NCBI GenBank assembly: GCA_944389865.1
Contig: CALXNX010000002.1
Location: 1,674 to 65,673 of the forward strand
Direction of reading: 5' to 3'
Length of the DNA stretch: 64,000 nt
Source of the DNA: an uncultured Succinivibrionaceae bacterium
GTDB lineage: Bacteria > Pseudomonadota > Gammaproteobacteria > Enterobacterales > Succinivibrionaceae
The notes beneath the pieces are model-generated. The model searched no databases, had not been told where the DNA came from, and saw nothing but the letters and a program-made list of their open reading frames with translations. The first letter of the stretch is position 1. The number at the start of each line of letters is the position of its first letter. Both the position numbers and the translations under genes were made by a program. Positions 5,389 through 29,640 of this stretch are shown in pieces.

Positions 5389-5396
5389 AGCTGCCT

Positions 5397-7421: not shown

Positions 7422-7423
7422 GA

Positions 7424-8340: not shown

Positions 8341-8403
8341 AACAGCGCCGAAACCATGCTCCGGTGCTTAAGGCTGAGATTGTACCCTGATTTGCCGTTC
8401 TGT

Positions 8404-12090: not shown

Positions 12091-14685
12091 TCAGGCAGCC
12101 ACGATGTTGACTAAACGGCCCTTAACATAGATGACTTTGCGGACCGCTTTGCCCTCTAAGTATTTTGCCGTGCCGGCATCCTGCAGCGCGGTCTGCTTAA
12201 TCTCTTCCTCGCCCATGTCAGCCGGAACGGTGACGCGGGCGCGCACCTTGCCGTTGACCTGCACGACGATGAGCAGCTCGTCGGCCGTTAAGGCGCTCTG
12301 GTCGACTTCAGGCCAGCGGGCCTGCAGATCAATGTCTGCGCTGTTGCCCAGCATGCGGTAGAGCTTAAAGCAGATGTGCGGCACGATAGGATAGAGCATC
12401 AGTACGGCGGCGTTGTAGATCTCATAGCGCACGCTGAGGCCCACGGCATCCTTGCGATTGTACTTTGCGGCAGCGTTTAAAAGCTCCATCACCGAAGCAA
12501 TAGCCGTGTTGAAGGTCTGGCGGCGGCCGATGTCATCGGAGACCTTGGCGATAGTGCGGTGCAGCAGCGAGCGCAGCTGCTTTTCCTCATGGCCCAAAGC
12601 GCTCTTGTCCAGCGGGACATAAGCGCCGTCAGCGGTAAGATCGCACACCTGCTTCCACAGCTTCTTTAAGAAGCGGTTGGCCCCTTCCACGCCGGACTGC
12701 CGCCACTCTAAGGTAAGCTCAGCCGGCGAGGCGAACATCATGAACAGGCGCACGGTATCAGCGCCGTACAGCCGGACCATATCTTCAGGATCGATGCCGT
12801 TGTTCTTGCTCTTGGACATCTTGATCATGCCCTCGTGCACCAGCTCGTGACCTGCGGCATCCACGGCCTTGATGATGTTGCCCTTATCGTCGCGAGTGAC
12901 GACGGCGTCAAGCGGGCTGACCCACACGCGCGCGCCGGCTTCGTTGACGTAGTAGAAGGCGTCAGCCAGCACCATGCCCTGGCAGAGCAGCCGCTTGAAG
13001 GGCTCATCGCCGCTGACCATGCCGGCATCGCGCATCAGTTTGAAGAAGAAGCGCGAATAGAGCAGATGCAGTACGGCGTGCTCAATGCCGCCGATGTACT
13101 GATCGACCGGAAGCCAGTAGTCGGCTGCGCTCTTTTCCACCATGCCGCCTTCATAGCGCGGCGAGCAGTAGCGGGCGAAGTACCAGGAAGACTCCATGAA
13201 GGTGTCAAAGGTATCAGTCTCGCGGACGGCGGGCTTGCCCTCGTATGAGGTCTGATACCAGCTGGGATCGGTCTTTAAAGGCGAGGTCACGCCGTCAATC
13301 TTGACGTCGGTGGGCAGAGTGACCGGCAGGTTCTCAGCCTTCTCCGGGACAATGGTGCCGTCCTCCAAGGTCAGCATCGGAATGGGAGCGCCCCAGTAGC
13401 GCTGACGGGAAATGCACCAGTCGCGCAGACGGTAGTTGACCTTGCGCTGCGCGCAGCCCTGCGCCTCCAGCTTGTCGGCAATGGCGTCAAAAGCCTGCTC
13501 GAAATTAAGGCCGTCAAACTCGCCTGAATTGTACAGCACGCCGTGATCGGTGAAGGCGCCCTGGGATAAATCAGGCTCCGGGCCGTCCGCCGGGCGGATC
13601 ACGCCTTTGATGGGCAGATTGTATTTTTTGGCAAATTCGTAGTCGCGCTCGTCATGGGCCGGGACGGACATCACGGCGCCGGTGCCGTAATCCATGATGA
13701 CGAAGTTGGCCACCAGGATGGGGAATTTTTCGCCGGTAATAGGGTGCACGGCATTAAGGCCTGTCGGCATGCCCTTCTTTTCCATGGTGGCGATGTCGGC
13801 TTCAGCAAATTTCTGCGTGCGGCATTCCTGACAGAAGGCGGCCAGCTCAGCATTGTGCTCGCAGGCTTTGCGGGCTAAGGGGTGGTTGGCGGAGATGGCC
13901 ATATAGGTAATGCCCATGAAGGTATCCGGACGGGTGGTATAGACCGTCACGGTATCCTCGCTGTCCGCTACCTTGAAGGTGATCTCCAGACCCTTGGACT
14001 TGCCGATCCAATTGCGCTGCATGGTGCGCACGCGCTCGGGCCAGCCGTCGAGCTTATCGATGTCCTGCAGCAGCTCCTCGGCGTAGGCGGTGATCTTTAA
14101 ATACCACTGCGGAATTTCGCGCAGCTCGACTTTAGCGTCGCAGCGCCAGCAGCGGCCGTCCACCACCTGTTCGTTGGCCAGCACGGTCTGATCGTTCGGG
14201 CACCAGTTGACGGTAGAAACCTTCTTATACACAAGTCCCTTTTTGTACAGCTCCCCGAAGAACTGCTGCTCCCATTTGTAGTACTCGGGACGGCAGGTGG
14301 CCACTTCGCGCTGCCAGTCGTAGGATAAGCCTAAGGACTTTAACTGCCGCTTCATATAGGCAATGTTGGCGTAAGTCCAGTCGGCCGGCTGAGCATTGTT
14401 CTTAATGGCGGCATTTTCAGCCGGCAGACCAAAGGAGTCCCAGCCGATAGGGGCCATCACATTTTTGCCCTGCAGACGCTGATAGCGGGCAATCACGTCG
14501 CCGATGGTGTAGTTGCGCACATGGCCCATGTGCAGCTTGCCTGACGGATAGGGGAACATCACGAGGCAGTAATACTTCTCTCTGCTCTGATCCTCGCAGG
14601 CATGGAAAGTCTCATGCTCCTGCCAATACTGCTGAATTTCCGGCTCAATCTCCTGCGGATTGTAAGCAGTGTCATTGGTTGCCAT
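12091..14685 (-). CDS. leuS: Leucyl-tRNA synthetase
   Basis: The ORF was trimmed to [27 protein letters not shown] (ATG at 14685). The motifs HMGHVRNY (HIGH) and KMSKSKNN (KMSKS) are present. The upstream 125-codon extension in the track overlaps the divergent ldt gene and is rejected. Confidence 0.97.
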
Positions 14686-15946: not shown

Positions 15947-18604
15947 ATGCAGAGCAGTGCGCTTAAATTCCTGCTGCCAGCCGCCTTGGTTTTGAGCCTG
16001 CAGGCGGCAGCGCAGCCGCAGAGTGCAGGGCAGCCGGCGCTCAAGCCGGTGCCGGGTGAGCTGGCCGCCGCCGCAGCAGAATCTGAGGATAATGATGAAC
16101 TGCAGCCGCTCTTTGCGGCCGCCTTAAATCCACAGGCTCAGACCGCGGCTCTGCAGCAGCAGTTTAAAGTCTCAGGCACGCTTCTGCCCGCAGCTTCTGA
16201 TCCGCAGCTGCAGCTGGTACCGCTTAAATATTTAGACGCTCTGCTCCAAGACGATGCGCGGCATAACGGCGGGCTGGTCTTTCCCTTTTTAGTCTTTGCC
16301 GGCGGCGCGGGCAGCGATCATTTAGATGCCTGCAGCCGGATTGAGACTGACGGGCGCAGCGCGCAGCTTGCCGCTTTAGAACAGCGCAGCGCGCAGCAGG
16401 AGGAAGATGATGCAGTGCAGCTTGGCCTTGAAGATCTGGAAGAGGCGGGTCTTGCCTGGCTCTATCTGCAGCCCGAGCTTGCTGCGCAGGGGCTGTCGCT
16501 TAATACCGGTGCGCTGCCCCGGCAGGGCTTGTCCTTAGATCTCAAAGCAGTGTCCATGCGCACTCTGCTGCAGAATCTGGCTTTTTACAGTCATGTGGAC
16601 GACCAGGGCTTCAGGCTGCCGGCCACGCCCTTTGATCAGCACATCTACAGCCGCTTCACCGAGCGCATGATCAATGGCGATAAGCTCTCTGCTTTAGGCC
16701 AGGGCTGCTCTTTTGCGCATGAGGAAAACTGCGGGCTTTATTTTACCGGTGCGCATGTCAGCGCGGTGCTTAAAGATGCCGGCGTCAGTTCCCCCTTCTA
16801 CATCAAGGATGATTTGTACGGCATTCCGCTGCGCTTTGATGAGCACGGGCAGCCGCAGCTCATTCTGCGCGCTGCGCTGTCCTCGGATTGGAATTACGTC
16901 AATTACGGCAATTTAATGGAGCTGGAGCTGGCGGTGCTGCAGGATCTGGGCTTTAACGTCAATCCGCGCCGGCATTACGGACGCTCGATTTATACCTTCG
17001 GAACCAGGGAAGAGCCCTTAAGACAGCAGCTGAGCTTTGCTTACGGGGACATTAACCATGCAGGCGACTATACTCTGCGCCCCAACAGCGCTCCTCTGGC
17101 GGTAGGTCTGCACTTATACGGCTCCTATAATGACATCTTAGCCGGCGGCACCGTCACTTCATCCGGTATCGGCTCCATCGGCGTGCGCGCAGACGGCTCA
17201 TACAATCGCCTGACCCTGCCTTTTCAGTCCTACGTGCGGGTGACAGGACCGCGCAGCATGGCAGCGGCGCTTACCAACGGCCATGACAATGTGCTGCAGA
17301 TAGACGGCGTCTTAAGCGCGCCGGCAGCTGACGGCATTGCCCTAAGCGCCGATTACGGCTCGAATATCTACTCGGACTTAACTGAGGCGCAGGGCTCGTG
17401 GCAGCGCTCGCGCTCTATTCCGGCTGCAGCCGGCGATCCGGCGGCAGCTTTGCCGCTGCTGCCGCCCTTAGAGGGGCCCCTTGCTCAGAAGATCAACATC
17501 TCCGGGCGATTGGAGGGCGGTCAGGCTGCGATCTATGCTGCGCCCGGCGCCTATGTGGGTGAAATCAATTTAACCGGGCGGGCGCAGATCTACGGGAATA
17601 TAGAGATTGCCTGGCATCCGCAGCCGCTGACGGATGATCTGGATGATGCACAGAAGTCGCGCCGGCCGCTGCCGCTCAATCTGCATGCGCCCACTGCTCA
17701 CGGCGCGGCTGCGGGGAATTTTTACGGCAGGCTGCCGCATAAGTCCGCTTGCTTTATCGGCACGCAGCTGCATCTGCCTGACGGAGTCAAGCCGGAGACT
17801 TTGACCACCAGGCTTAATTTAGGCATCAGCAAGGTCGCGGCAGCCGCCTCCGGACCTTCCGAACCTGCAGGCGATCCGCGCGCCAACATCCTTATAAACG
17901 GCGATGTGCAGGGGCCTGCATTGGAGATTAATCAGCCCGGCGGGCGGGCGCAAATCAGCGGTGCGCTGCAGGCGCGCAGCCTCACGGTCCGGCATGGTTT
18001 AATGCGTCTTAATCTGCCGGCAGGTGAGCAGGGCAGACTGCAGCAGCTGCAGCTGGGCGCGCGCGGCGTTTTAGATCTGCTCAACGGCAGGGCGGATACG
18101 CTGATTATTGACCGTGCCGCGATCTCGCGTACGGCCGCGGTGCGTGTCGATGCAGCCCCTGATGGGACTATCATGGATCAGCTGATCATTACTCATGACG
18201 CACAGTCAAGCTCGGGATATCTGACCTTAGAGCCGGGCGTGTCCTTTGATGCTTTAAAGCGGCTGTCCGCTGATCCGCGCCAATTCTTAAGCTTTATGAC
18301 CACATTTTCCTCCAGCGCTAATTATCTGTATAAGGATTTAGATATCTTTGTGGCCTTTCCAAACCAGATCTGGCTGCAGAACGGTACCTACGGGCGCGAG
18401 ACGCGCTGCAGCGCCCGCGGCTGCCGGGCTGGGAATTTTGTCAAAGCCTACGCACAGGGACATGCAGAGCTGCCGTCCTGGCGCTATGCCTTAAGCATCG
18501 GCGGTCTGGCTGCCTTAGTCTTAGGCACTGTGCTTTACTTTAAGCTTGCGCAGTACTTCAGCCGCCGCCGGATGCGCAGGCAGGCAAAAGCTCAGCAAGA
18601 GTGA
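15947..18604 (+). CDS. Large secreted or surface protein of unknown function (885 aa): signal peptide, beta-helix-like Gly-rich middle, C-terminal TM helix plus Arg-rich tail
   Basis: The start lies 4 nt after the ldt stop. The signal peptide is MQSSALKFLLPAALVLSLQAAAQP. The middle carries repeated G-x-I/V-x-G strand-like patterns. The last 40 aa read SWRYALSIGGLAALVLGTVLYFKLAQYFSRRRMRRQAKAQQE. I recognise no catalytic motif. Confidence 0.7.
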   Translation: MQSSALKFLLPAALVLSLQAAAQPQSAGQPALKPVPGELAAAAAESEDNDELQPLFAAALNPQAQTAALQQQFKVSGTLLPAASDPQLQLVPLKYLDALLQDDARHNGGLVFPFLVFAGGAGSDHLDACSRIETDGRSAQLAALEQRSAQQEEDDAVQLGLEDLEEAGLAWLYLQPELAAQGLSLNTGALPRQGLSLDLKAVSMRTLLQNLAFYSHVDDQGFRLPATPFDQHIYSRFTERMINGDKLSALGQGCSFAHEENCGLYFTGAHVSAVLKDAGVSSPFYIKDDLYGIPLRFDEHGQPQLILRAALSSDWNYVNYGNLMELELAVLQDLGFNVNPRRHYGRSIYTFGTREEPLRQQLSFAYGDINHAGDYTLRPNSAPLAVGLHLYGSYNDILAGGTVTSSGIGSIGVRADGSYNRLTLPFQSYVRVTGPRSMAAALTNGHDNVLQIDGVLSAPAADGIALSADYGSNIYSDLTEAQGSWQRSRSIPAAAGDPAAALPLLPPLEGPLAQKINISGRLEGGQAAIYAAPGAYVGEINLTGRAQIYGNIEIAWHPQPLTDDLDDAQKSRRPLPLNLHAPTAHGAAAGNFYGRLPHKSACFIGTQLHLPDGVKPETLTTRLNLGISKVAAAASGPSEPAGDPRANILINGDVQGPALEINQPGGRAQISGALQARSLTVRHGLMRLNLPAGEQGRLQQLQLGARGVLDLLNGRADTLIIDRAAISRTAAVRVDAAPDGTIMDQLIITHDAQSSSGYLTLEPGVSFDALKRLSADPRQFLSFMTTFSSSANYLYKDLDIFVAFPNQIWLQNGTYGRETRCSARGCRAGNFVKAYAQGHAELPSWRYALSIGGLAALVLGTVLYFKLAQYFSRRRMRRQAKAQQE

Positions 18605-18693
18605 TTGTGCTGGGCTGACCCGGGCCGGCAGTGCACTGACTTGCAGAGCCGGCTGCTTGCCGCTGTCCCTTAAAGACAGCGGTTGGCGCCATT

Positions 18694-21600
18694 CTATTGG
18701 ATCTGCGCCTGCATGGGGGCAGCAGCCACCGCACTCAACGGTATTGCGGCATTTTCCTGCAGCTTATCTATAGTTGTTAAGAAAGACTGCAGCATCCCGG
18801 GCGCAGCTTCATCAAAGGTCTGAGCAAAAGCTGCTACAAACGGCGGCTCGTTCAATGCATTTCTTTCCAGAATGCCGTTTTTGACGATATACTCAATCAC
18901 CATATTGATGAAGCGCGACTGCAGCGGATTGAGCTGGTAGCTGCGCAGAAATTCAGCAAACAGCTCTTTGGCTGCCTGCTGGCTTAAGCCTGCAGTCCTG
19001 CGGATCAGCACGCCGACGTTCTGTCCTTTAAAAGCCTGCAGATACTCTTCCTTAGAGCCCAGATCCCGCCAGACGATAAGCTCCAAGTGAGCGATATCGC
19101 TGTCAGACAGCGGCTGGTTGTTGTGCAGCTTGCTGATCACGCCTTCATTCAGATGTTCAAGGATGTAATCCTTAAAACGTTGTTCGTAGGACTCAAAGTT
19201 TTCATCGGGGTATTTTTTAATCCCGTCCGAATCATACTCTTTAACTTCAAGCTGGTCGGTGAAATCTACAATTTTATAAAACTCAGGATCTGATGTAATA
19301 AAAAAGCACAAGTCCCGCAGATGTACTCTGATCTGCTCAAGCTGCGTTAAGTTAAGCTCTTTAAGAAAGTTTGCACTTAAAATGCAGTCAATCCACTTGC
19401 GCTGCCTTCCGATATCCGGGATCTCATCTTGTAATTTCCGCAGAGCTTTTGCGATAGCTTGAAGGCGCTTGTATAACATCGTCAGCAGTCCGCGATCCTT
19501 ATTATTGGAGCTTATAAAATACTCTAAGGAATACAGCAGATAATCAAAGCGCCGAGCCCGAATGTCATCCTTAAAATCAGCAGGAATGATCGCTCCCAAT
19601 TCTTTTGAGGCATGCTCAATGATCTCTGAGGTAAGGTTTTCATAGGCTTTAGGCTGCTTAAATTCTCGCACCGCCTGGGGGTGGTTCTGCGCCTGGAAGC
19701 TGTTCTCTGGGATAGCGCCGACTTTAGCTGCCAGATCAGAAATAGTCTTTTCAGCATAAGCCTGATAATCCTCCTGATGTTCAGACTGCTGCAGGCTGGC
19801 AAGCAGTTTCAGTCTGAGCTCGAAGGTAAGATGCTCCAGTGATTTGATCGCTTTAGTAGCGCGTCCCTGTGGATTGGTGTTGAAGTACTCAAAGTTGCCG
19901 CAGGCATCGATAATCAGGAAATGATCCTTGTCCTTTCCGTCAATCAGTCCCGGGCATTTGCGCGTGCCGCGGCCAATCATCTGCCAGAACTTGGCATAAC
20001 TGTAAACCGGCTTGTAAAACACCAGATTTAGGCATTCCGGCACATCGATGCCGGTATCGAGCATATCCACTGAGACTGCTATCTGCGGCATTTTAGACGG
20101 GTCTTTAAACTGGTCTATCAGGTTTTCACAGTAGCTGATCTGATTGTCGATCACCTTGCAGAATTCATTGCCCAGATACGGGTACTGCTGCAGGAAAACA
20201 TCGCGGATCACTTCAGCATGGCGGTGACTGCGTGCAAAGATGATTGTTTTGCCTATTTTATCGCCGTTATCGATTTTAAGACCGTTAGTCATCAGCTGAT
20301 CTAAAATCTGCTTAATTGTGTCCTGATTGAACAGCCAGTTATCGATAGCTCCGCTGGAGATCTCGGTGATCATGCTGCCATTTTCATTTGTAAGATCGGC
20401 AAAAGTCTCCTCCCACATTTCTTTTTCAGCCTCGGACAGATCGGCATACTTAATGCCGCTGCGCTGAAATCCGGTATTGAGCTTCAAGGTATGGAAGTCA
20501 ACTAAAACTTTGTCTTCTACTGCTTTTTTAAGCGGGTAATAGTAGGTAGGATTATCTTTGTCCTGATTAAATACTTTGTAGGTATTGATGTCGATGTCAT
20601 CCTTCGGGGTGGCAGTAAGGCCTACTAAGTAGGAGTCGAAATAATCGAAGATCTCGCGGTACTTGTTGTAAATCGACCGATGCGCCTCATCACAGACAAT
20701 AAGATTGAAGTGCCCCGAAGAGAACAAACGGCTGCCGTCCTCATTGCGGTTTTCATCAATGGTCCCGATCATGGTCTGATAAGTAGAGAACACAATGCGG
20801 GCACCCGGAGATCGGTCTTCAGGCTTGTCAGCACAGAGATTTGCCAGCGGGAAAGACTTCAGCTGCATTTTAGCCGCGCTGAAGGCCTGCGACACCAAGG
20901 CCTTGCGATCTGCCAAAAAGAGCACATTTTTAACCCAGCCCTTTTCACAGAGCACCTTGATTAGATTAAGCACAGTTAAAGTCTTGCCGCTGCCGGTTGC
21001 CATCACCAGCAGAGCTTTGCGGTATCCCTTACTGAAGCGCTCACAGACAGCATTAACAGCTTCAATCTGATAATAGCGGCAGAGCGGATCGAGGTTCAGA
21101 TCCTGCAGCTTCTGGCGATGACTGTAGTTATAGTGCAGGGTCTGCAGATCGCTTTTGGTGTAGAAGGACGATACCCGACGTTCATTGCCGTATTCAATTA
21201 AGATGATTTCATTGCCGTTAGTCAGGAAGACCGCAGGCTTGCGGCCGTACTTCTTTTCAAGGCACTCAGCATAGAGCATGGCCTGATGGCGGCCGACGGA
21301 CGGATCTGCGAAGAACTTTTTAGCTTCAATGACGGCAAGCGGAGTACCGTCGTTATCGAACATTACGTAATCTGCATAACCGATGCCGGCAGCGTTAGGC
21401 ATGCCGGAAACTTCATATTCAGTTAGGCAGTCAGAGCCGATTTTCCACCCGGCATCCTGCAGTCTTGAATCAATAAAGCGTCTGCGGGTTTCCTCTTCAG
21501 AAATATCGGTTTTAGGCGCCTGATACTTAGAGGCATGCTGTTCTCTGCGCTTAGTGAGTTCTTCAGCCAGAGTTTCCGGCACCGCTTTTTTTGCAGTCGC

Positions 21601-22251
21601 CGGTAAAGCTGACTGCGGCTGAGATATGCTGACTTTTGAATTATTGCTCTTAGAAGATGCTTTAAGCTGTTTTTGCGCTGCATTTGCATCGGCATCCGGC
21701 TTTGCCTGCACGGCTGCAGCTGATACTGCAGGAGCAGAGTGCTGTACCGGCTGTTTTGCTGCTGTCGGCTGAACCGCTGACTGTGGTCTTGAGGCTGCAG
21801 TTACGCCTGATCTCGGATTTAAAACTAGATCTTTATGAAAACGCCTGAAGGCCTGCCCGCTGCCGTAGATCTGATCAATCCAGTCCATGTACATGAACAG
21901 TGAATTTAAAGTAAATACAGCATCGCCAATGGTGAATTTGGTCGGATTGTGGGCGGCCTCGTTGCCTGCCTTACGGATGAAAAACAGGTGATTGGAGATG
22001 TTTTGGCCGATTAGCTGCCTGAAGTGGTAGTTTGAAGTAAGTTCATAGAAGCTGACACGATAGGGATCAGGCTGAATCCTGCGCAGTGAGTTATCAGCTG
22101 TATACAGCCATTTGGTGGCAGATTCAGCTGCAGAGCGACATCCCAGAATTGCGCCGGTAGGAAACTGCACTGCTGTGCTTTCTGCTTGGCAGGCTAGGTT
22201 AGCAAAGGCAGCGAAGTTAGGCTGCTTTAAAAGAAAGTCAAAATTGCCCAT
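18694..22251 (-). CDS. hsdR: Type I restriction enzyme R subunit, with an N-terminal DUF4145-like domain and an EcoEI-R-type C-terminal domain
   Basis: The PD-(D/E)xK-like nuclease region is GYADYVMFDNDGTPLAVIEAKK. The helicase motifs are LLVMATGSGKTLT (Walker A), LIVCDEAHRS (DEAH) and QMIGRGTR (motif VI). It is co-oriented with the adjacent hsdS and hsdM. Confidence 0.92.
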   Translation of the reverse strand: MGNFDFLLKQPNFAAFANLACQAESTAVQFPTGAILGCRSAAESATKWLYTADNSLRRIQPDPYRVSFYELTSNYHFRQLIGQNISNHLFFIRKAGNEAAHNPTKFTIGDAVFTLNSLFMYMDWIDQIYGSGQAFRRFHKDLVLNPRSGVTAASRPQSAVQPTAAKQPVQHSAPAVSAAAVQAKPDADANAAQKQLKASSKSNNSKVSISQPQSALPATAKKAVPETLAEELTKRREQHASKYQAPKTDISEEETRRRFIDSRLQDAGWKIGSDCLTEYEVSGMPNAAGIGYADYVMFDNDGTPLAVIEAKKFFADPSVGRHQAMLYAECLEKKYGRKPAVFLTNGNEIILIEYGNERRVSSFYTKSDLQTLHYNYSHRQKLQDLNLDPLCRYYQIEAVNAVCERFSKGYRKALLVMATGSGKTLTVLNLIKVLCEKGWVKNVLFLADRKALVSQAFSAAKMQLKSFPLANLCADKPEDRSPGARIVFSTYQTMIGTIDENRNEDGSRLFSSGHFNLIVCDEAHRSIYNKYREIFDYFDSYLVGLTATPKDDIDINTYKVFNQDKDNPTYYYPLKKAVEDKVLVDFHTLKLNTGFQRSGIKYADLSEAEKEMWEETFADLTNENGSMITEISSGAIDNWLFNQDTIKQILDQLMTNGLKIDNGDKIGKTIIFARSHRHAEVIRDVFLQQYPYLGNEFCKVIDNQISYCENLIDQFKDPSKMPQIAVSVDMLDTGIDVPECLNLVFYKPVYSYAKFWQMIGRGTRKCPGLIDGKDKDHFLIIDACGNFEYFNTNPQGRATKAIKSLEHLTFELRLKLLASLQQSEHQEDYQAYAEKTISDLAAKVGAIPENSFQAQNHPQAVREFKQPKAYENLTSEIIEHASKELGAIIPADFKDDIRARRFDYLLYSLEYFISSNNKDRGLLTMLYKRLQAIAKALRKLQDEIPDIGRQRKWIDCILSANFLKELNLTQLEQIRVHLRDLCFFITSDPEFYKIVDFTDQLEVKEYDSDGIKKYPDENFESYEQRFKDYILEHLNEGVISKLHNNQPLSDSDIAHLELIVWRDLGSKEEYLQAFKGQNVGVLIRRTAGLSQQAAKELFAEFLRSYQLNPLQSRFINMVIEYIVKNGILERNALNEPPFVAAFAQTFDEAAPGMLQSFLTTIDKLQENAAIPLSAVAAAPMQAQIQ

Positions 22252-22281
22252 AAAGTGACCTCGAAAACTTACTGTTATAGC

Positions 22282-23469
22282 CTACTCCAATATTTTGAGG
22301 ATTTGCTCAATGTTAGCTTTTAGTTTGTCGATATGTTTGATAATAACAGAATAATCATCTTGTAAATTAAGAGGAGGAATGGGAATTTGTGTTGAGCCTA
22401 TTTTTGCTTTATTTAAAGTTGATCCTTTAACTGCGGAAGAAGACACTTGTGACCACTTAAAGTAGGATAGAAAAGTTGACAGATATTGATTGCTTATATT
22501 CTGGTTTTTGGGTAAAAAAGCCATTATAGCTTCATTAGTAAATATTTCTTCATTAGTTATGATGGTTTTTCCTATTGATAACTTAAAGCTCATCAAAACT
22601 GTATTACTAGGAACAGGTTTGATTCCAGATTCATTAACTGCAATGTCAGAAATTTTTTCTTTTGTGTTAATACAGCAAGCATTAGCGTTATTTAGATCCG
22701 AAATAGATAACCATTTATGATGAGGTTTATCCCAATATAATTTATTTGCTCTAGATGGTGTTTTACCCATTTGTAAATTAAATAAATTAGAAATCTTATC
22801 TGTTGGCCATTTTTTACTATTTGCATTAATATCACCAAACAACTCGCTAAATATCGTATTTTTAAGTAATTCAACTTTTTCTAGTATTTGCTGAGCTATA
22901 AGTTTTAATTTGTCGATATGTTTGATAATAACAGAATAATCATCTTGTAAATTAAGAGGAGGAATGGGAATTTGTGTTGAGCCTATTTTTGCTTTATTTA
23001 AAGTTGATCCTTTAACTGCGGAAGAAGACACTTGTGACCACTTAAAGTAGGATAGAAAAGTTGACAGATATTGATTGCTTATATTCTGGTTTTTGGGTAA
23101 AAAAGCCATTATAGCTTCATTAGTAAATATTTCTTCATTAGTTATGATGGTTTTTCCTATTGATAACTTAAAGCTCATCAAAACTGTATTACTAGGAACA
23201 GGTTTGATTCCAGATTCATTAACTGCAATGTCAGAAATTTTTTCTTTTGTGTTAATACAGCAAGCATTAGCGTTATTTAGATCCGAAATAGATAACCATT
23301 TATGATGAGGTTTATCCCAATATAATTTATTTGCTCTAGATGGTGTTTTACCCATTTGTAAATTAAATAAATTAGAAATCTTATCTGTTGGCCATTTCTT
23401 ACTATTTGCATTAATATCACCAAACAACTCGCTAAATATGGATTTGACTAAATTTTTGCTATCGCTCAT
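22282..23469 (-). CDS. hsdS: Type I R-M specificity subunit (hsdS2) whose two target-recognition domains are almost identical
   Basis: The fold pattern is typical of HsdS (MGKTPSR..., conserved helices ending DKLK). Residues about 11-189 and about 206-384 are identical in the translation. It lies directly upstream of hsdR. Confidence 0.9.
   Translation of the reverse strand: MSDSKNLVKSIFSELFGDINANSKKWPTDKISNLFNLQMGKTPSRANKLYWDKPHHKWLSISDLNNANACCINTKEKISDIAVNESGIKPVPSNTVLMSFKLSIGKTIITNEEIFTNEAIMAFLPKNQNISNQYLSTFLSYFKWSQVSSSAVKGSTLNKAKIGSTQIPIPPLNLQDDYSVIIKHIDKLKLIAQQILEKVELLKNTIFSELFGDINANSKKWPTDKISNLFNLQMGKTPSRANKLYWDKPHHKWLSISDLNNANACCINTKEKISDIAVNESGIKPVPSNTVLMSFKLSIGKTIITNEEIFTNEAIMAFLPKNQNISNQYLSTFLSYFKWSQVSSSAVKGSTLNKAKIGSTQIPIPPLNLQDDYSVIIKHIDKLKANIEQILKILE
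22317..23439 (-). repeat. Near-perfect tandem direct duplication, period 585 bp (copy A about 22317-22854, copy B about 22902-23439)
   Basis: Identical 76-aa antisense ORFs at 22490..22720 and 23075..23305 fix the 585-bp offset. In my manual alignment of the ends I saw only two mismatches: g/a near 22323 versus 22908, and t/c at about 22814 versus 23399. Confidence 0.9.
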
Positions 23470-23481
23470 TGCAGTATTCCC

Positions 23482-24486
23482 CTAGGCAATGAATTTTCTA
23501 TGTGATTGTTTTACATTGGACTGATTTACCATTGCGTATTGCATGGTGGTATCAATTTGTGAGTGACCCAGCAATTGCTGTAATTGTTCAATTGGCATGC
23601 CTTTATCAATAGCCTTGGTAGCCAAGGTCCTTCTGAATTTGTGAGGGTGAGCTTTATTGATACCCAACCTTTTACCAAGGTTTCTAATCCTGATTTCAAC
23701 CCCGCTGATATTAAGTCGGCTGCATTTCTTTTGATTAAGTGAGATAAACAGGGCAGGGTTGTCGTCTGTCCTAGACTTTAAGTAATTGCTTAAGTGAATT
23801 TTAGTCCGCGCATCAAAATAAACTGGGCGCTGTTTGTTGCCTTTGCCTAAAACGACGCATTCGCGATTTTCAAAGTCAATATCTTCACGGTTAAGGTTTA
23901 CTAGCTCACCTACGCGCATACCTGTTGAAGCGAGAAGATCAATCATAGCTAAATCGCGCAAATTGCTGCACTCATCGCGCATTTTTTCTAAGGATTCATC
24001 ACTGTAGGTTTCTTTTACAACCTTCTGCTTTCTGATCTTATGGATGCGTCTGACCGGACTTTTAATAATGAAGTCTTCATCCTCAAGCCAAGCAAAAAAG
24101 GTTGACAGGATCCGACGTATATTGTCAATGTTTACCTTGGTGCAGGAATGTGTTTGTTCGTAATTACTTAAATAGGCACGCAGATCATCGGTAGTTGCTA
24201 AAGTAACCTTTTTACTGTTGCTATCTAAAAAGGTATTTAATGTGTAGCGGTAGTACTTTAAAGTACGTGGGCTGCAGCCTTCTACTTGCTTTGCATCTAA
24301 GAATTTATTTAAAAGGCTTTCATTAGAGTCATCATTGGTTCTGGTTGGTTCATTGACATCTATAGAATAAATTTTTCGGTTATGTAGTTTTTCCTGCAAA
24401 ACCTGACTAAGGATTTGTGACTGCTCTGCATTTAAGCAGCCAGACATAGCTTCTTGCACTTGATTGATAAACAGGGAGGTATTCAT
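23482..24486 (-). CDS. Tyrosine site-specific recombinase (phage integrase/XerD-like) embedded between two hsdS genes
   Basis: The catalytic pattern is present in order: STGMRVGEL (Arg), GKGNKQR (Lys), HPHKFRRT (His-x-x-Arg), LGHS (His), TMQYA (Tyr). An N-terminal SAM-like core-binding domain is present. Confidence 0.9.
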   Translation of the reverse strand: MNTSLFINQVQEAMSGCLNAEQSQILSQVLQEKLHNRKIYSIDVNEPTRTNDDSNESLLNKFLDAKQVEGCSPRTLKYYRYTLNTFLDSNSKKVTLATTDDLRAYLSNYEQTHSCTKVNIDNIRRILSTFFAWLEDEDFIIKSPVRRIHKIRKQKVVKETYSDESLEKMRDECSNLRDLAMIDLLASTGMRVGELVNLNREDIDFENRECVVLGKGNKQRPVYFDARTKIHLSNYLKSRTDDNPALFISLNQKKCSRLNISGVEIRIRNLGKRLGINKAHPHKFRRTLATKAIDKGMPIEQLQQLLGHSQIDTTMQYAMVNQSNVKQSHRKFIA

Positions 24487-24523
24487 AAACTTGCTCCATT
24501 AGTTGCTGTAGTTGTAAATTTTT

Positions 24524-25945
24524 TTAAGAAAACAATAAATTAATGAGCAAGTTTGAAATCTCAATAGTTTTAATCAAAATATATAGAAGTATTATATTTT
24601 GATTAAAACTATTGAAATTAAATTTTAGTTTGTCGAGTCTTTTAATAATATCAGCGAACTTATTTTGTAACAGAATAGGTGGTACCTTGATTTCTAAATT
24701 GCGTATTAATTCCTGACTTAAATTTTTTTGAACACCTCCTTTTAACTGAGATTGTAATATGTGTTCACTATTATTTAATGCATGGTATAGGTATATTGGA
24801 TTAAAAAGATTGCAAGGTAATATACAACATAAAGCCTGGTTAGTGGCTGCCTGTATTTTTAACAGACCTGCTTTTCCAGCAGTTCCTTTGCAGTACATTG
24901 CTACAACAACAGTGTTCTCAGGAACGAGTTTGGCTGATGAGTTTTTTAATCCTTCTTTAGTAATGTGTTTAAGTGCATGGTTTATATAGCCTTGGCTAAC
25001 TTCTGTGCTTGTTATCCATGGGATATTTCCATTTTCGTAATACTCTTTATGCGAAGTCGAAGGCGTTCCGCCAGAAACAGTATCAGTACATTCTGAGATT
25101 TTTTTTATTTGAAAATTATCACCATCAAAAAAATCATTGAATACAGTTTTTTGAATAATGCTAATTTTTTTACTAATCTGCTGAGCAATAAGTTTTAATT
25201 TGTCGCGCTGATTTACTATGTTTGCATATTTTAACTGCTTAGATTTATGTGGTACAGGAATTGTTAATTGTTTTAACAATTTGCTTCTAATGCCTATAAC
25301 AGTTGAACCTGATTTCTTTTGAAAAAGTTTTGATTGAAATTTTTTCGAAAGTAAAACATATTCTAAGAATGTTGAGTCTAATGATTCTTTATGAGGTTGT
25401 AATGTTATTATACGCTGTCCAACTCCAAATTTTGGTTTTAATTCTGCTATATTAGGAATTTTACAGACATTTCCTAAAGGAGCTTCAGTTGTAAACAAAA
25501 CATCTCCTATCTTAGGATAACCACGTTGCATAAACTTTTCATAAGTTTCAGGAGATATGAATTCTTGAGGCTCTGAAGTAAAGTGGTTGTTTTTAACGTT
25601 TTTGGCAGTAATCAGTCTGTAACCGAAATCTGATTTCTCAGGAGTCTTTCCTCTGTAATCAATAAATGTGCATACCTTTTCAAGAGTATAATAATTGTAG
25701 TTTCCATATCCAAACATCTCGTTAAATATGGATTTGACAATACGCTTGATTAAATATAATGTCCTATTATTTAGCTGATTTATATCAAAATAAAAGTTTT
25801 TTATTGAGTACTGTTGATTAAATGACATCATTGTCACCTGCTGGAGCAGATTACACTGAGCTTTTATATTTAGCGCAGTCAGTACGTCTATCTTTTTCAA
25901 GATGGGCGTTACTGATCTTTTTACTCGGGCAGTAAACATTGTCAA
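24524..25945 (-). CDS. hsdS: Type I R-M specificity subunit (hsdS1) with two different TRDs
   Basis: TRD1 contains IDYRGKTPEK...TTEAPLGNV. The central conserved region is RDKLKLIAQQISKK. TRD2 contains VSGGTPSTSH...NIPWIT. The C-terminal conserved region is LDKLK. The start is uncertain (25945, or Met-Met at about 25831), and the last roughly 30 codons read through a strong hairpin. Confidence 0.85.
   Translation of the reverse strand: MTMFTARVKRSVTPILKKIDVLTALNIKAQCNLLQQVTMMSFNQQYSIKNFYFDINQLNNRTLYLIKRIVKSIFNEMFGYGNYNYYTLEKVCTFIDYRGKTPEKSDFGYRLITAKNVKNNHFTSEPQEFISPETYEKFMQRGYPKIGDVLFTTEAPLGNVCKIPNIAELKPKFGVGQRIITLQPHKESLDSTFLEYVLLSKKFQSKLFQKKSGSTVIGIRSKLLKQLTIPVPHKSKQLKYANIVNQRDKLKLIAQQISKKISIIQKTVFNDFFDGDNFQIKKISECTDTVSGGTPSTSHKEYYENGNIPWITSTEVSQGYINHALKHITKEGLKNSSAKLVPENTVVVAMYCKGTAGKAGLLKIQAATNQALCCILPCNLFNPIYLYHALNNSEHILQSQLKGGVQKNLSQELIRNLEIKVPPILLQNKFADIIKRLDKLKFNFNSFNQNIILLYILIKTIEISNLLINLLFS
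24561..24615. repeat. Perfect inverted repeat: 20-bp arms, extendable to 23 bp, with a 9-nt centre
   Basis: tcaatagttttaatcaaaat (24561-24580) is the exact reverse complement of attttgattaaaactattga (24596-24615). Three further inner base pairs also match. It lies in the 3' tail of hsdS1, 75-130 bp upstream of the recombinase start. Confidence 0.9.
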
Positions 25946-25975
25946 GCATCCTTTAATTAATTTACATCGCAGAGC

Positions 25976-27508
25976 TTATTTGTCCTCTGATGCTTCAGAT
26001 GCTCTTGCTTCCTGCAGCATTTGCTGCAGTTTGGCAAACTCAGTCTGGAATTCAGCACTGAGTGTTGCAATTTCCTGCATTAATTCAGCGCTTGAAGGCA
26101 GATCTTCCTCTTCATAGACGATCTCTTTGTATTTATTGATGGATAGATCGTAGCCGTTGGCAATAATCTCATCTTTTGGAACTAAGAAGCTCTGCTCTGT
26201 ACGCTTGCGTTCTGCTTCTGCCTCTAAATGATTCCAGCGTTCAATAATGTCGGGCAGATTACTGTGATCAAGAGGCTGGCGCTTGTCATCGAGACTGAAG
26301 CCGTCAGACTGCATGTCGTAGAACCAAACATCTTCAGTGGCGGCATGATCGGTCTTGGTAAACACCAAGATAGAAGTAGAAACGCCGGCGTATGGTTTAA
26401 ATACGCCTGAAGGCATCGAAATTACTGCCTGCAGACGCTGGTTATCTACTAGCTCTTTACGGATGGAGAGGTGCGCCTTGGAGCTGCCGAAAAGCACGCC
26501 GTCAGGCACAATTACAGCTGCTCGTCCGCCAATCTTCAGTAGGCGCAGGAACTGCGCAATGAATAAAAGCTCCGTCTTGCTGGTATTAGTTACCCGCTTG
26601 AGCACTGGATCGGTAGTATCCTTATCCAGACTGCCTGTGAAGGGAGGATTGGCCAGCACAACTGAATAGCGCCCCTGATCCTTTTCCTTAAGCTGCTGCT
26701 GTTCGCTGTTTTCAGCAACGGTAAGGCCGTTTAAGTATTGAATGTTCGGATCTTCAATATTGTGCTGCATCAGATTCATAGCAGCAATTTCCAGCATGGT
26801 AGTATCAATATCGTAGCCGGTGAAAAGCTCGGTATTGTAATAGGCCATCTTTTCAGGCTCGAATATGAGATCCGGATTCTGCTCGCGAATATATTTGCCG
26901 GCTTCAATCAGGAATCCTGCAGTACCGCAGGCCGGATCGCAGATCCGATCTGAAATGCCGGGTTTTAACAGCTCCACCATCATGCGGATAATGTGGCGCG
27001 GAGTTCTGAACTGTCCTAAATTGCCCGAGGTGGACAGCTTGCTCAGCATGTACTCGTAGATATCGCCGCGAATGTCGCTGTCAGAGCCGTCTTCATTAAT
27101 GATGCCGTAAACCTCATTCATGGCCTCCATCACCGAGACCAGCTTTTGATCAGACGGGATCTCAAACTGAGCATTCTTCATGTAGCGGGCAAAGGCGCTC
27201 TTTTTGTTGGGATTGAGGTTTTTAATCAGCGGGAAGATGGTGTTCTCAACCGTATCCCGCAGAGTGCGAGGATCAGTGATCTTCAGGAGATTGTCCCAGC
27301 GCAGATCTTCATTGCCGTCAAAGATAGAAGTGTAGGGTGTATTGAGCAGTGCCGCGTTTTTGGCCTTGACGGTATCGTAGGCGCTGAGATCGTGAATAAA
27401 CATCAAATAGGTGATCTGCTCAATTACTTTGAGCGGGTTGCTGATGCCGCCTGAATAAAAGATATCCCACAGAGCGTCAACTTTATTCTTTAAGGTTCCG
27501 GTGATCAT
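25976..27508 (-). CDS. hsdM: Type I R-M N6-adenine DNA methyltransferase subunit
   Basis: It has an HsdM N-terminal domain. The AdoMet motif is DPACGTAGFL. The catalytic motif is VLANPPFTG (NPPF). Confidence 0.95.
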   Translation of the reverse strand: MITGTLKNKVDALWDIFYSGGISNPLKVIEQITYLMFIHDLSAYDTVKAKNAALLNTPYTSIFDGNEDLRWDNLLKITDPRTLRDTVENTIFPLIKNLNPNKKSAFARYMKNAQFEIPSDQKLVSVMEAMNEVYGIINEDGSDSDIRGDIYEYMLSKLSTSGNLGQFRTPRHIIRMMVELLKPGISDRICDPACGTAGFLIEAGKYIREQNPDLIFEPEKMAYYNTELFTGYDIDTTMLEIAAMNLMQHNIEDPNIQYLNGLTVAENSEQQQLKEKDQGRYSVVLANPPFTGSLDKDTTDPVLKRVTNTSKTELLFIAQFLRLLKIGGRAAVIVPDGVLFGSSKAHLSIRKELVDNQRLQAVISMPSGVFKPYAGVSTSILVFTKTDHAATEDVWFYDMQSDGFSLDDKRQPLDHSNLPDIIERWNHLEAEAERKRTEQSFLVPKDEIIANGYDLSINKYKEIVYEEEDLPSSAELMQEIATLSAEFQTEFAKLQQMLQEARASEASEDK

Positions 27509-28005
27509 ATAAATATTCCGTCAGCTGCAGTCGTCCCGCAGTCTGCTTTAAGGTTTAAGTCATGAAGTTCGAGGTCATCTTATGGTGCAGCGCTTTTGGT
27601 GTCAAACAAAATCGGGGCTGAAAAAATATTTTTTTAACACCCGGCATTATTCCATTTGAAGGAATAATAGAACGTATAATCAGTCTTTTTGACGCCTGTA
27701 TGTTCTCTAAAAAACGACATTAAGGCGGATTTTAAAGCCCTTTAAATCTGAGGTTTTGACTGCTATACTATGAACATCTTCTGATAGACCGGCCGGGCGT
27801 AAATTTATCGCCCCTGCGACAAATTCAGCATGATTGCTGTAACCGGATGGCACGGCAGCTAATAGGAGGCTATCAGAAGCACGCTTTTCCAGCCTTTTCT
27901 CTCTAATGCGTTTTTCTTTAGTCTCAAAGGTTTTTATGCCCTTTCGATTTACGCTGTAAGCAGGACTTCAGCTCTGTGCAGCCTTGAACGAAGGGCAGAG
28001 GCCGT

Positions 28006-29640
28006 TCATGGACGAATAAGACTTGCCAGCACTTCATGCTCTTTGTTAATGCCGTGACGACGGTGATAGAAGCCGGCAGCCAGCAGCAGGATTAAGAGCA
28101 CATAAAGCGGCAGGTGACCAAAGCGCGCAAAGGGCGTCTGCCCATGATAGAGCGCGGTGCTCACTTTTAGCACCGCAGCAGAATCGCGCGGCAGGGCATC
28201 GATCACCATGCCGTCAGCTCCTATGAGCGCAGTGATGCCGGAGTTGGTGGCGCGCAGCATCGGCTTCTGCAGTTCCATACAGCGCAGGCGTGCAATATTT
28301 AAATGCTGTACCGGACCTGAAGTCAGGCCGAACCAAGAGTCATTGCTTACCATCAGGATAAGACTGCTTTCCGGGGTATCGGCATCTAAAAAGAGCTCCG
28401 GGAATACCGCTTCAAAGCAGATGGCTGGGATAAAGGGATGCCCCAGCGCACTTAAAGGTTCAGTCGGCAGCTGTCCTGTGGCAAAGGAGGACATCGGGAA
28501 ATTGAAGATGGAGCCTAAGGGGCGCAGCAGATCGGCAAAAGGCACTACCTCGCCGAATGGCACCAATTTGCGCTTGTCATAGCGCGGCAGATCTTCCAAA
28601 TCATCAAAGTTTTTAAGCTCGCTCTGACCTAAGACCACTAAGGAGTTATAGGGCCGGCGGGTATCTCTATCTACATGCTGCACGCCGGTAATGAGGGCTG
28701 CGCCTTGGGATTTGAAGGCGGCGTTGAGGTCAAAAAAGAGCTCAGGCGCACGCTCCAGGTACAGCGGCACCGCCGACTCCGGCCACACCACTAAAGTATC
28801 CGGCTTAATTTCAGGCTTGGTCAGATCCCAATAAGTCTGCAGCGTAGGGCCCACCATCTCAGGGCGCCATTTGACGCTCTGCTCGATGTTGCCCTGCACG
28901 AGGACAGCATGCAGATCACCTTGCGGGGTGGTGAATTTTAATGAGGAGGCGAAAACGCCCAGCATAAAGATGATGCCGGCTGCCGGCAGGAAGATAAACT
29001 GGCGGTAGAGCGCCAGCGCAATGGCTCCGGCGCAGAGATAGAAGCACAGATTAATGCCGCGCACGCCGATCAAGGGGGCAAAGGCCGATAAAGGACCGGT
29101 GATCGCGGTATAGCCGGCGTACACCCAAGGAAAGCCGCCGAACAGCACGCCGATGATGAGATCGGCAAGGCACCAGGCGGGCGGCAGGAAGCAGAATAAA
29201 AAGATCCCGCGCCGATCGCCTGCCAGCCGGCGTGCCATGACGGTGAGCAGAGCGTAAGGCAGGGCCAGGTAGAGCGCAAAGATTAACAGCACGGTCCAGG
29301 CTAGCGGCACCGGCATCGCGCCGAAGCCCTGGAGCACAAAGTTCAGCCACCACAATGAGGCGGCGCTTAAGGCCGTAAAAAAGGAAAGGCTTGCGGCAAA
29401 GATCTGCTTTTTAGTTCGATAGAGCGTAAGGAGCGCTGCCCCTAAGCTCAAGCCTGCCAAGGTCAAGGGCCACAGGCCGACCGGGGCAAAGCCGCAGGAG
29501 GTCAGCAGGCCCAGCAGAGCCGGGAAGAGCACCAAACCCCATTTGGCAGAAAAAAGGCGCTGCCACAGCGCCGGTTGTCCTAAAATTTCCAGAATAAGAC
29601 GGAGTTTAAGCAGCATCTTCTTCCTCAGCGGGGCCGACAA
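28006..29640 (-). CDS. lnt: Apolipoprotein N-acyltransferase
   Basis: It has a multi-TM N-terminal half and a C-N hydrolase domain (VVWPESAVP, with the later FIPAICFEAVFPEL carrying the catalytic Cys). Its position after corC is conserved. Confidence 0.9.
   Translation of the reverse strand: MSAPLRKKMLLKLRLILEILGQPALWQRLFSAKWGLVLFPALLGLLTSCGFAPVGLWPLTLAGLSLGAALLTLYRTKKQIFAASLSFFTALSAASLWWLNFVLQGFGAMPVPLAWTVLLIFALYLALPYALLTVMARRLAGDRRGIFLFCFLPPAWCLADLIIGVLFGGFPWVYAGYTAITGPLSAFAPLIGVRGINLCFYLCAGAIALALYRQFIFLPAAGIIFMLGVFASSLKFTTPQGDLHAVLVQGNIEQSVKWRPEMVGPTLQTYWDLTKPEIKPDTLVVWPESAVPLYLERAPELFFDLNAAFKSQGAALITGVQHVDRDTRRPYNSLVVLGQSELKNFDDLEDLPRYDKRKLVPFGEVVPFADLLRPLGSIFNFPMSSFATGQLPTEPLSALGHPFIPAICFEAVFPELFLDADTPESSLILMVSNDSWFGLTSGPVQHLNIARLRCMELQKPMLRATNSGITALIGADGMVIDALPRDSAAVLKVSTALYHGQTPFARFGHLPLYVLLILLLAAGFYHRRHGINKEHEVLASLIRP

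Follow-up and report, generated by a model that had tools for sequence, protein, structure and literature searches.

A tandemly duplicated target recognition domain in hsdS2 of a probable cassette-shuffling Type I restriction-modification locus from an uncultured Succinivibrionaceae bacterium

Within a 64,000-nucleotide stretch of DNA from an uncultured Succinivibrionaceae bacterium (contig CALXNX010000002.1, positions 1,674 to 65,673; hereafter the window), the Type I specificity gene hsdS2 (22282..23469, minus strand, 395 amino acids (aa)) contains one and the same target recognition domain (TRD), here called TRD A, in both of its slots. This gene, the downstream one of two specificity genes in its cluster, is probably a real and recent allele in a locus of the tvr (SpnIV-like) type, in which TRD cassettes are shuffled and which the host would have acquired horizontally; we hold this interpretation with moderate confidence. 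That the duplication itself is real rather than an assembly artefact appears to us highly probable, given that the single-nucleotide polymorphism (SNP) between the two copies is phased and that separate assemblies agree.

The two copies of the duplicated block are located at 22909..23439 (copy 1) and 22324..22854 (copy 2), both on the minus strand, and are offset by 585 bp. A base-by-base comparison at this offset shows 531 bp with one mismatch, at 22813/23398, which is followed by 41 identical bases up to 22854/23439, and the longest perfect run is 489 bp (22324-22812 and 22909-23397). BLAST extends the repeat to 537 bp at 99.63% identity with two mismatches, both of which are synonymous. The internal one distinguishes AAG (Lys24) in copy 1 from AAA (Lys219) in copy 2. 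The second one, at 22323/22908 (TTA/CTA), falls in the leucine codon of the motif DKLK and is the one base that always separates the central from the distal R repeats described below. At the protein level, residues 11-189 are identical to residues 206-384. The first-pass annotation of this stretch had already described a near-perfect tandem duplication of a TRD plus conserved helix at an offset of 585 bp, with two mismatches of which the one inside the block is synonymous, and the self-alignment that it proposed as a check confirms this. Its "538-bp perfect" repeat, in contrast, has to be replaced by the values given above. The duplicated block spans from an L repeat to an R repeat: copy 1 comprises the L3 repeat and TRD A up to the R3 core, and copy 2 runs from the L4 repeat through TRD A up to the R4 core. 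The duplication has the L repeat, which here encodes IFSELFG, as its left edge, and its right edge lies in the DKLK-encoding repeat. The only unique sequence between the copies is a segment of 54 bp (22855..22908, minus strand), which contains the remainder of the R3 core together with the central helix (..LKLIAQQILEKVELLKNT).

With regard to the encoded protein, Pfam PF01420 (Methylase_S) matches hsdS2 in two stretches (E 2.5e-37), and NCBIfam gives no meaningful family for it. An AlphaFold2 model based on 60 homologues, with a mean predicted local distance difference test score (pLDDT) of 91.3 and a predicted template modelling score (pTM) of 0.76, exhibits two globular TRDs and two long helices (residues 171-210 and 366-393). 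The full-length Foldseek matches of this model are the HsdS structures 1YF2, 2Y7C, 7VS4_C, 5YBB_D and 7BST_A. As modelled, the hsdS2 product is a canonical two-TRD, two-helix HsdS with an exact two-fold sequence symmetry. The two Methylase_S TRDs, the two helices and the presence of hsdM and hsdR in the cluster place it among the Type I HsdS proteins, and its full length with two TRDs places it outside the half-size class of the NgoAV / EcoR124I(delta50) type.

The symmetry is far beyond chance and is rare. Among the 120 best hsdS2 homologues out of 5.8 billion proteins, for which the identity between TRDs was computed by Smith-Waterman on the sequence halves of each homologue, only one other protein (P0004) has an identical TRD pair; P0005 has a pair that is 63% identical, and the remaining homologues show 20-40% between their TRDs. 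P0004, a protein of 560 aa from an unrelated metagenome, has three TRDs in the order A'-A'-D, the first two of which are 100% identical. The first-pass annotation had also asked whether homologues carry one or two copies: an identical pair is found in P0004 and a single copy in the protein P0122 described below, and the remaining ones have dissimilar TRDs. The two best homologues, P0001 and P0003, are hsdS1-type proteins of sister lineages with a relative of TRD A in slot 1, at approximately 82% DNA identity. As the two copies in hsdS2 are 99.8% identical, against approximately 82% for this nearest orthologous TRD, the duplication is recent, in agreement with what had been proposed at first pass. 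Another hsdS2 homologue, P0002 (493 aa), also has three TRDs.

A duplication of this kind could arise during assembly if, in a heterogeneous locus, the assembly path joined cells with A in slot 1 and cells with A in slot 2, or looped through A-helix-A once too often, in which case no chromosome would carry A-A. Every source of the sequence is indeed a metagenome or metagenome-assembled genome (MAG), many contigs of the species break exactly at L repeats, as expected of graph branching at the slots, and the unique spacer of 54 bp between the copies is short. Suspicious, 100% identical cassette copies are also present in other integrase-linked loci (L015, L092, L102 and L143). Nevertheless, the exact 395-aa protein is on record on three contigs, and the two or three separate assemblies, which differ at eight other SNPs, have the same structure. 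One of these is the metagenome contig L001 (8.5 kb, ENA ERZ28614349), which was independently assembled, is colinear with the window, differs from it at 8 other positions and has the identical duplication, including the SNP between the copies. In both assemblies, this SNP is in phase with its own context. Moreover, the window holds no further hsdS-like sequence and no alternative cassette for either hsdS2 slot, short-read assemblers usually collapse such repeats instead of expanding them, and the two identical TRDs of P0004 come from an unrelated metagenome. An artefact thus appears improbable to us.

A second sample from the same study yielded a single-copy version of hsdS2, which also counts in favour of an assembly problem. 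The protein P0122 (200 aa), the remaining member of the 90% cluster of hsdS2, consists of head, TRD A and tail, is exactly one 585-bp unit shorter, and is encoded on a scaffold of 970 bp (L165). This scaffold has the copy-2 allele (AAA) directly after the hsdS2 head, as expected of an exchange between L repeats (L x L) or of a crossover in the first 41 of the 531 bp, although this short scaffold may equally well represent a collapsed repeat. It bears on the earlier idea that the locus toggles between a full-length and a half-length subunit. The half-length form does exist in another sample, but "toggle" is too strong a word, since deletion is easy whereas re-duplication would be intermolecular, and since the half form would probably have the same specificity.

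The cluster that contains hsdS2 comprises five close-packed genes, 5/5 on the minus strand according to the open reading frame (ORF) listing and Pfam, in the order hsdM-hsdS1-tyrosine recombinase-hsdS2-hsdR. At its head, hsdM (25976..27508, minus strand, 510 aa) encodes the Type I N6-adenine methyltransferase subunit (Pfam HsdM_N and N6_Mtase, E 7e-66). The upstream specificity gene hsdS1 (24524..25945, minus strand) encodes 473 aa from a TTG, with an alternative ATG at 25939, and matches Methylase_S in two stretches. By comparison with the contigs L002, L004 and L168-L177, its slots were assigned TRD B (slot 1) and TRD C (slot 2), and its C-terminal tail is unusual. The tyrosine recombinase (23482..24486, minus strand, 334 aa), a TvrR homologue, has the Pfam Phage_integrase domain and a SAM-like N domain and scores above the cut-off of the NCBIfam XerA-type family. 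The cluster ends with hsdR (18694..22251, minus strand, 1185 aa), which encodes an EcoAI-like restriction/translocase subunit (Pfam ResIII, Helicase_C and EcoEI_R_C; NCBIfam EcoAI/FtnUII family, below its cut-off). The gaps measure 37 nt between hsdS1 and the recombinase gene, 12 nt between the recombinase stop and hsdS2, and 30 nt between the hsdS2 stop and hsdR. The 37-nt gap holds no ORF, and a tvrAT (Phd/Doc-type) pair is absent from the cluster of the window. The G+C content is 28-34% in the hsdS genes, approximately 40% in the recombinase gene, 45-50% in hsdM and hsdR, and 55-62% in the flanks; the low values relative to the flanks mark the cluster as an acquired island. A transfer across phyla is suggested by the 69% identity of the recombinase to a streptococcal one. 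As for the host, the MiaB protein encoded in the flank is 100% identical to metagenome proteins only and shares 69-70% identity with proteins of Anaerobiospirillum and Succinatimonas, which places the bacterium among uncultured Succinivibrionaceae.

The streptococcal protein in question is the recombinase of a tvr locus of S. mitis, to which the 69% identity extends over 281 aa; the comparison was made with this S. mitis protein, not with pneumococcal TvrR. The S. mitis locus (L166), which was reached through the hsdS2 homologue P0038, has the full tvr layout hsdM-hsdS-phd-doc-int-hsdS-hsdR, and the R and L sequences of the window recur in it as its direct repeats, ...GTCGACAAATCACAATT (41 nt) and GTAAAATCCCGATTTAACGAGATGTTTGGGGAT (33 nt), respectively. 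In pneumococcus, the tyrosine recombinase TvrR excises circles between direct repeats, which are reintegrated at another repeat (Kwun 2018, PMC6265443). The repeats there are a mid-point class of approximately 18 bp and a tail-end class of approximately 70 bp with a core of approximately 11 bp in common, and the arrangements produced are 2+1, 3+1 and 2+2 (PMC6265443). Integrase scans of the genome collection and of metagenomes found no match from a close relative of the host, the best one being 69% identical, from which it follows that the species representative set is without this locus.

To place the recombinase, we compared 165 loci with integrase relatives, namely 160 fetched by integrase, four of this species and the window. 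The co-directional M-S-int-S(-R) layout is the commonest among them. The integrase strand has 113 copies of a 12-nt core, GACAAAYYRAAA, and the opposite strand has 2. Two or more copies are present in 40 loci, all of which belong to the group with the most similar integrases, and in these 40 the core is found to either side of the integrase wherever sequence of both flanks was available. Across phyla and G+C contents, the DNA sequence of the core is conserved even at synonymous positions. More distant integrases are instead accompanied by inverted TAAACGATAATTTA repeats, i.e. they belong to invertons. The sequence and the orientation of the site thus vary together with the recombinase clade, and this is the best available argument for the R core as the putative crossover site of the recombinase. 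The clade with direct repeats (phmmer score >441 to the window integrase), whose loci have GACAAAYYRAAA, KSRFIEMFG-coding repeats and co-directional hsdS genes, is hosted by Firmicutes, Succinivibrionaceae and other gut MAGs. The group with inverted TAAACGATAATTTA is found in Bacteroidales, Faecalibacterium and S. sanguinis.

The repeats of the window fall into two classes. The L repeat TCAAATCCATATTTAAYGAGATGTTTGG, of approximately 28-29 nt, encodes KSIFNEMFG, and the R repeat, with the core GACAAAYTAAAA, encodes DKLK and measures 18-24 nt when central and 13 nt when distal. The coordinates of the L and R repeats listed here refer to the minus strand. L1 (25710..25729), which encodes SIFNEMF, precedes slot 1 of hsdS1; over 29 nt it shares 93% identity with the first L repeat of hsdS2. 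The central R cores, R1 in hsdS1 (25193..25204) and R3 in hsdS2 (22903..22914), have the sequence GACAAATTAAAA, and the distal ones, R2 in hsdS1 (24623..24634) and R4 in hsdS2 (22318..22329), have the sequence GACAAACTAAAA. L repeats precede the TRDs in 4/4 slots of L002-L004; in the window they precede slot 1 of both genes and slot 2 of hsdS2, the copy in slot 2 of hsdS1 being degenerate. All L and R repeats have the orientation of the embedded recombinase gene. Between hsdS1 and hsdS2, no inverted repeat exceeds chance, the longest inverted match being 12 nt, compared with direct matches of 18, 16 and 14 nt. An inverton model was dropped, as the hsdS genes are on the same strand, all sites are direct and no inverted repeats rise above chance. 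Invertons (SpnIII/ivr, Mycoplasma pulmonis hsd, Bacteroides; Huang 2020, PMC7672463) resemble the locus in that a tyrosine recombinase lies beside multiple hsdS genes and TRD exchange diversifies specificity, and distant members of the integrase family of the window serve them. They differ from it in that the window has neither inverted repeats nor oppositely oriented hsdS genes.

Loci from other samples show that the cassettes bounded by these repeats have changed place. In L002, L003 and L004, the cluster occupies the same chromosomal site, in the order lnt-hsdM-hsdS1-int-hsdS2-hsdR. The window and L001 have B+C in hsdS1 and A+A in hsdS2; L002 and L003 have A'+B' and D+E; L004 has A'+E and D+B'. 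In L168, F+C is followed by G+H. In L169, hsdS1 has G+C and hsdS2 starts with G. For three further contigs, hsdS2 lies beyond the contig end, and hsdS1 has F followed by the contig end in L170, F+C in L174 and G+C in L177. Between L002 and L004, the slot-2 cassettes of the two hsdS genes (598 and 589 bp, each 99.8% identical) have thus been cleanly and reciprocally exchanged, while the left flanks of the two loci are 99.7% identical and the rest of the cluster is colinear. The left breakpoints lie in CGACAAATTAAAACTTATTGCTCA, the 24-nt central R repeat, and the right ones in CGACAAACTAAAA, the 13-nt distal R repeat, both of which encode DKLK. This is exactly what is predicted by excision at one repeat pair and reintegration at the other (Kwun 2018).

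Cassettes have changed not only gene but also position. TRD A is found in both slots of hsdS2 in the window and its relative A' in slot 1 of hsdS1 in L002 and L004, TRD B is in slot 1 in the window and in slot 2 (as B') in L002-L004, and TRD G lies on either side of the integrase, in slot 1 of hsdS1 in L169 and L177 and in slot 1 of hsdS2 in L168. Contigs L171, L172, L173, L175 and L176, from five samples, end in or just after L1, and L170 ends at L2. These ends at L repeats indicate that several alternative cassettes stand behind one head within single samples, through either phase variation or strain mixture. Two further observations concern individual contigs. In L169, TRD G follows the hsdS1 head (10432-10888) and, at the contig end, the hsdS2 head (12655-12700), which means either that the same cassette occupies two slots or that the assembler has fused two arrangements. 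In L177 (11818-11870), TGTGAGGCATGCTCAATAAATTGG... replaces the usual tail after the distal R core of hsdS1, so that the junction is at the putative crossover site; this sequence has no match in the window.

Based on these observations, a sequence of events can be proposed for the origin of hsdS2. Each of the four slots, two per hsdS gene, has an L repeat at its 5' side and an R repeat at its 3' side. The recombinase would excise a circle between two like sites and reinsert it at another like site, thereby moving TRD cassettes between the genes, and homologous recombination may help or replace it at the longer repeats. As the hsdS frame begins with an L repeat, cassettes could also move between slot 1 and slot 2. 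Copy number would change when the partner site is on a sister chromosome or when the circle integrates into the sister. An L x L exchange between sisters would give a three-TRD gene A-A-X of the P0004 type, from which excision of X by R x R would leave A-A. We infer that P0004 is either the intermediate expected of such an unequal L x L exchange or a 3+1 arrangement. In the reverse direction, one unit would be lost through an L x L or R x R excision, or through the action of RecA on the repeat of 531 bp, to yield the 200-aa half-S.

Homologous recombination alone, be it unequal sister exchange by RecA, gene conversion at the helix repeats or transformation, could produce similar alleles if the integrase were irrelevant or dead. 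This is how domain movement (DoMo) is presumed to operate in the Type I/IIG S genes of Helicobacter pylori (Furuta 2011, PMC3077401; 2014, PMC3983042) and Moraxella catarrhalis (PMC6241649), where three-TRD and single-TRD alleles are explained by repeat recombination with no linked recombinase, and where one Type IIG allele, HPV225_1544, has the same TRD at both positions. The likeness is considerable: the TRDs have direct repeats on both sides, and the same TRD occurs at position 1 or 2 and in different hsdS genes, as it does in this locus family. In addition, the L001 integrase has a stop codon, and excision independent of TvrR was also seen at long repeats in pneumococcus (PMC6265443). In contrast to DoMo, the locus of the window has a TvrR-type recombinase and a conserved core site. 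Its repeats are short, the L002/L004 swap having used a 13-nt repeat, a poor substrate for RecA, and the 12-nt core is kept including its synonymous positions, in a fixed orientation to the integrase and in one integrase clade only. Homologous recombination as the sole agent is rather unlikely in our view. The first-pass annotation had explained the near identity by a very recent duplication or by homogenisation through unequal crossover between two DKLK-encoding regions, and had expected the repeat to be unstable under RecA. Recombination at conserved flanking repeats does remain the likely cause, and the right edge is in a DKLK repeat, but the left edge is an L repeat. RecA is a possible agent, yet neither the only nor the most likely one, with a tyrosine recombinase 12 nt upstream; this recombinase and the second hsdS, both overlooked at first pass, point to a tvr-type excision-reintegration locus.

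The resemblance to tvr (SpnIV) goes beyond the co-directional order hsdM-hsdS-recombinase-hsdS-hsdR. The arrangement is 2+2 in the window and 3+1- and 2+1-like in relatives, two classes of direct repeats with one orientation and a common core lie astride the recombinase (mid-gene KSRFNEMFG and tail VDKS), and translocated cassettes distinguish the natural alleles, as expected from the circle model. The differences are also clear. The window is without the tvrAT (Phd/Doc) pair, which S. mitis L166 has. Its hsdS frame starts with half a helix and the L repeat, whereas S. mitis hsdS starts directly with TRD1. As every slot of the window thus has the form L-TRD-R, its TRDs are not locked to an N- or C-terminal position, unlike those of tvr, and both A and B are indeed found in both positions. 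Finally, the window has two copies of one cassette, its host belongs to the Gram-negative Succinivibrionaceae of the gut, and shuffling is here read from sequence comparison. In the literature searched, pneumococcal tvr is the sole experimentally characterised system of this layout.

Several points weigh against the interpretation of hsdS2 as a recent allele of a tvr-type shuffling locus. Excision and reintegration within one chromosome keep the copy number, so that A-A needs an extra intermolecular step. The activity of the recombinase is deduced from comparative patterns, and the tvrAT genes, which regulate the pneumococcal system, are missing. L002 and L004 are different strains, their right flanks being 96.8% identical, and the swap between them could be old or due to transformation. 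All sequences are metagenome assemblies of a locus that confuses assemblers, and a chimeric path across the short inter-copy spacer is possible. Furthermore, L001, which is otherwise 99.9% identical to the window, has differences at 25102 and 25116 that truncate hsdS1 to 279 aa and one at 24390 that truncates the recombinase to 166 aa, and the system may be in decay in some of the population. L168 likewise has a stop within TRD F of hsdS1 (5450-6142); in parts of the population, represented by L001 and L168, the primary specificity gene seems to be inactivated and/or the locus locked. Lastly, hsdS2 may be a silent store, as is the downstream hsdS of pneumococcal 2+2 tvr loci.

The last point determines what can be expected of the protein. 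If hsdS2 were made and assembled with HsdM, the enzyme would by analogy methylate or restrict an interrupted palindrome consisting of a half-site, about 5-8 N and the reverse-complement half-site. Two identical TRDs are known to give such targets in EcoR124I(delta50), truncated EcoDXXI, NgoAV and the engineered EcoR124I-NT (Loenen 2014, PMC3874165; PMC3320862). In these half-S systems, the symmetry is achieved by a dimerised truncated subunit, whereas in the window both TRDs are in one full-length polypeptide by tandem duplication. The 200-aa P0122, the predicted deletion product, is such a half-S and would probably form a dimer of the same specificity. Which half-site TRD A recognises is not predictable, as the closest solved structure found by PDB sequence search, M. 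jannaschii HsdS (1YF2), is too distant. The palindromic target proposed at first pass is thus sound in principle, on the precedent of these enzymes, but it is to be expected only if hsdS2 is expressed, since the downstream hsdS is silent in tvr. For the same reason, a missing palindromic motif in the methylome would not refute the duplication, contrary to what had been stated.

It is possible, although in our judgement somewhat less likely than not, that hsdS2 is real but silent, i.e. an untranslated storage copy in which A-A is a neutral by-product of cassette traffic and leaves no palindromic motif in the methylome. In pneumococcus, only the hsdS upstream of tvrATR drove methylation, and the downstream hsdS of 2+2 loci drove none (PMC6265443). 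In most relatives, the ORF that follows the integrase is a single cassette with no obvious start of its own. A strong hairpin is also present ahead of the recombinase gene, within the 3' end of hsdS1 (24557..24619, minus strand), 71 nt upstream of the recombinase start. This inverted repeat, I1, has 27-nt arms that are 96% complementary and a 9-nt loop, with an RNA fold of -27.9 kcal/mol. L002 and L004 have an equivalent hairpin at the same place, with a different sequence and a conserved structure. It may be an attenuator of the transcription of the recombinase gene and hsdS2, or an accessory recombination site; the pneumococcal tvr locus has an attenuator before tvrR. Several features of hsdS2 nevertheless argue for a functional gene. 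It is an intact ORF of 395 aa with an ATG that is preceded, at 7 nt, by the Shine-Dalgarno-like motif GGGGAA. It is tightly enclosed between the recombinase gene and hsdR, whose transcription is required for restriction, and no promoter stands out inside it. A promoter and terminator scan of 18.5-28.1 kb gave counts equal to the shuffled expectation and is therefore uninformative on the expression of hsdS2. Its N-terminal head, MSDSKNLVKS, and its C-terminal tail are conserved in L002, L004 and L168.

If it is real and expressed, hsdS2 would encode a naturally occurring Type I specificity subunit that is full-length and has an exact internal symmetry; NgoAV, the natural palindromic Type I case of the 2014 review, relies on a truncated subunit (PMC3874165). 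The context is more important than the allele. Excision-reintegration has been described experimentally only for pneumococcal tvr, and the literature searched holds direct-repeat loci for pneumococcus and one Sphaerochaeta locus only. The present comparison suggests that the same mechanism is used by a recombinase clade that has a conserved core site in the DNA and extends over Firmicutes, Proteobacteria and further gut taxa, and that a simple permutation of the hsdS frame frees the TRDs from their positional lock. This bears on how gut bacteria diversify their restriction barriers and methylomes, and on the mis-assembly of such loci in metagenomes. The locus is an extension of known mechanisms, not a new principle. 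As a tentative and rather doubtful generalisation, TvrR-type recombinases with the GACAAAYYRAAA core might define a widespread, cross-phylum class of direct-repeat TRD cassettes. Their permuted-frame L-TRD-R cassettes would be integron-like, fitting any of the four slots in variable copy number and giving half-size, A-A or three-TRD genes on demand. Such a class, if true, would add palindromic targets and copy-number states to the phase-variable Type I repertoire.

In five other loci with integrase relatives, long direct repeats lie astride the integrase gene: L015 (2008-2557 / 4708-5257), L102 (4076-5121 / 6765-7810), L092 (3276-5371 / 6990-9085), L143 (3295-4008 / 5518-6232) and L094 (3703-4475 / 5382-6154). 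These repeats measure 550-2096 bp at 99.4-100% identity, 3/5 being at 100%, and reflect either a recurrent cassette or gene duplication or a recurrent mis-assembly of shuffling loci.

Around the cluster of the window (18500-28000), lnt (28006-29640) is located on one side and an 885-aa ORF with no Pfam match (15947-18604) on the other. In syntenic loci, a gene with a Fic/Doc domain is found approximately 6 kb off, outside the cluster. Before its first L repeat, hsdS1 has a predicted N-terminal extension of approximately 70 aa (25730-25945, minus strand). Its reading as a relic TRD tail with a degenerate R repeat was dropped, as the lengths do not fit. The extension is absent from hsdS2 and from S. 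mitis hsdS and is conserved in L002, L004 and L168-L177.

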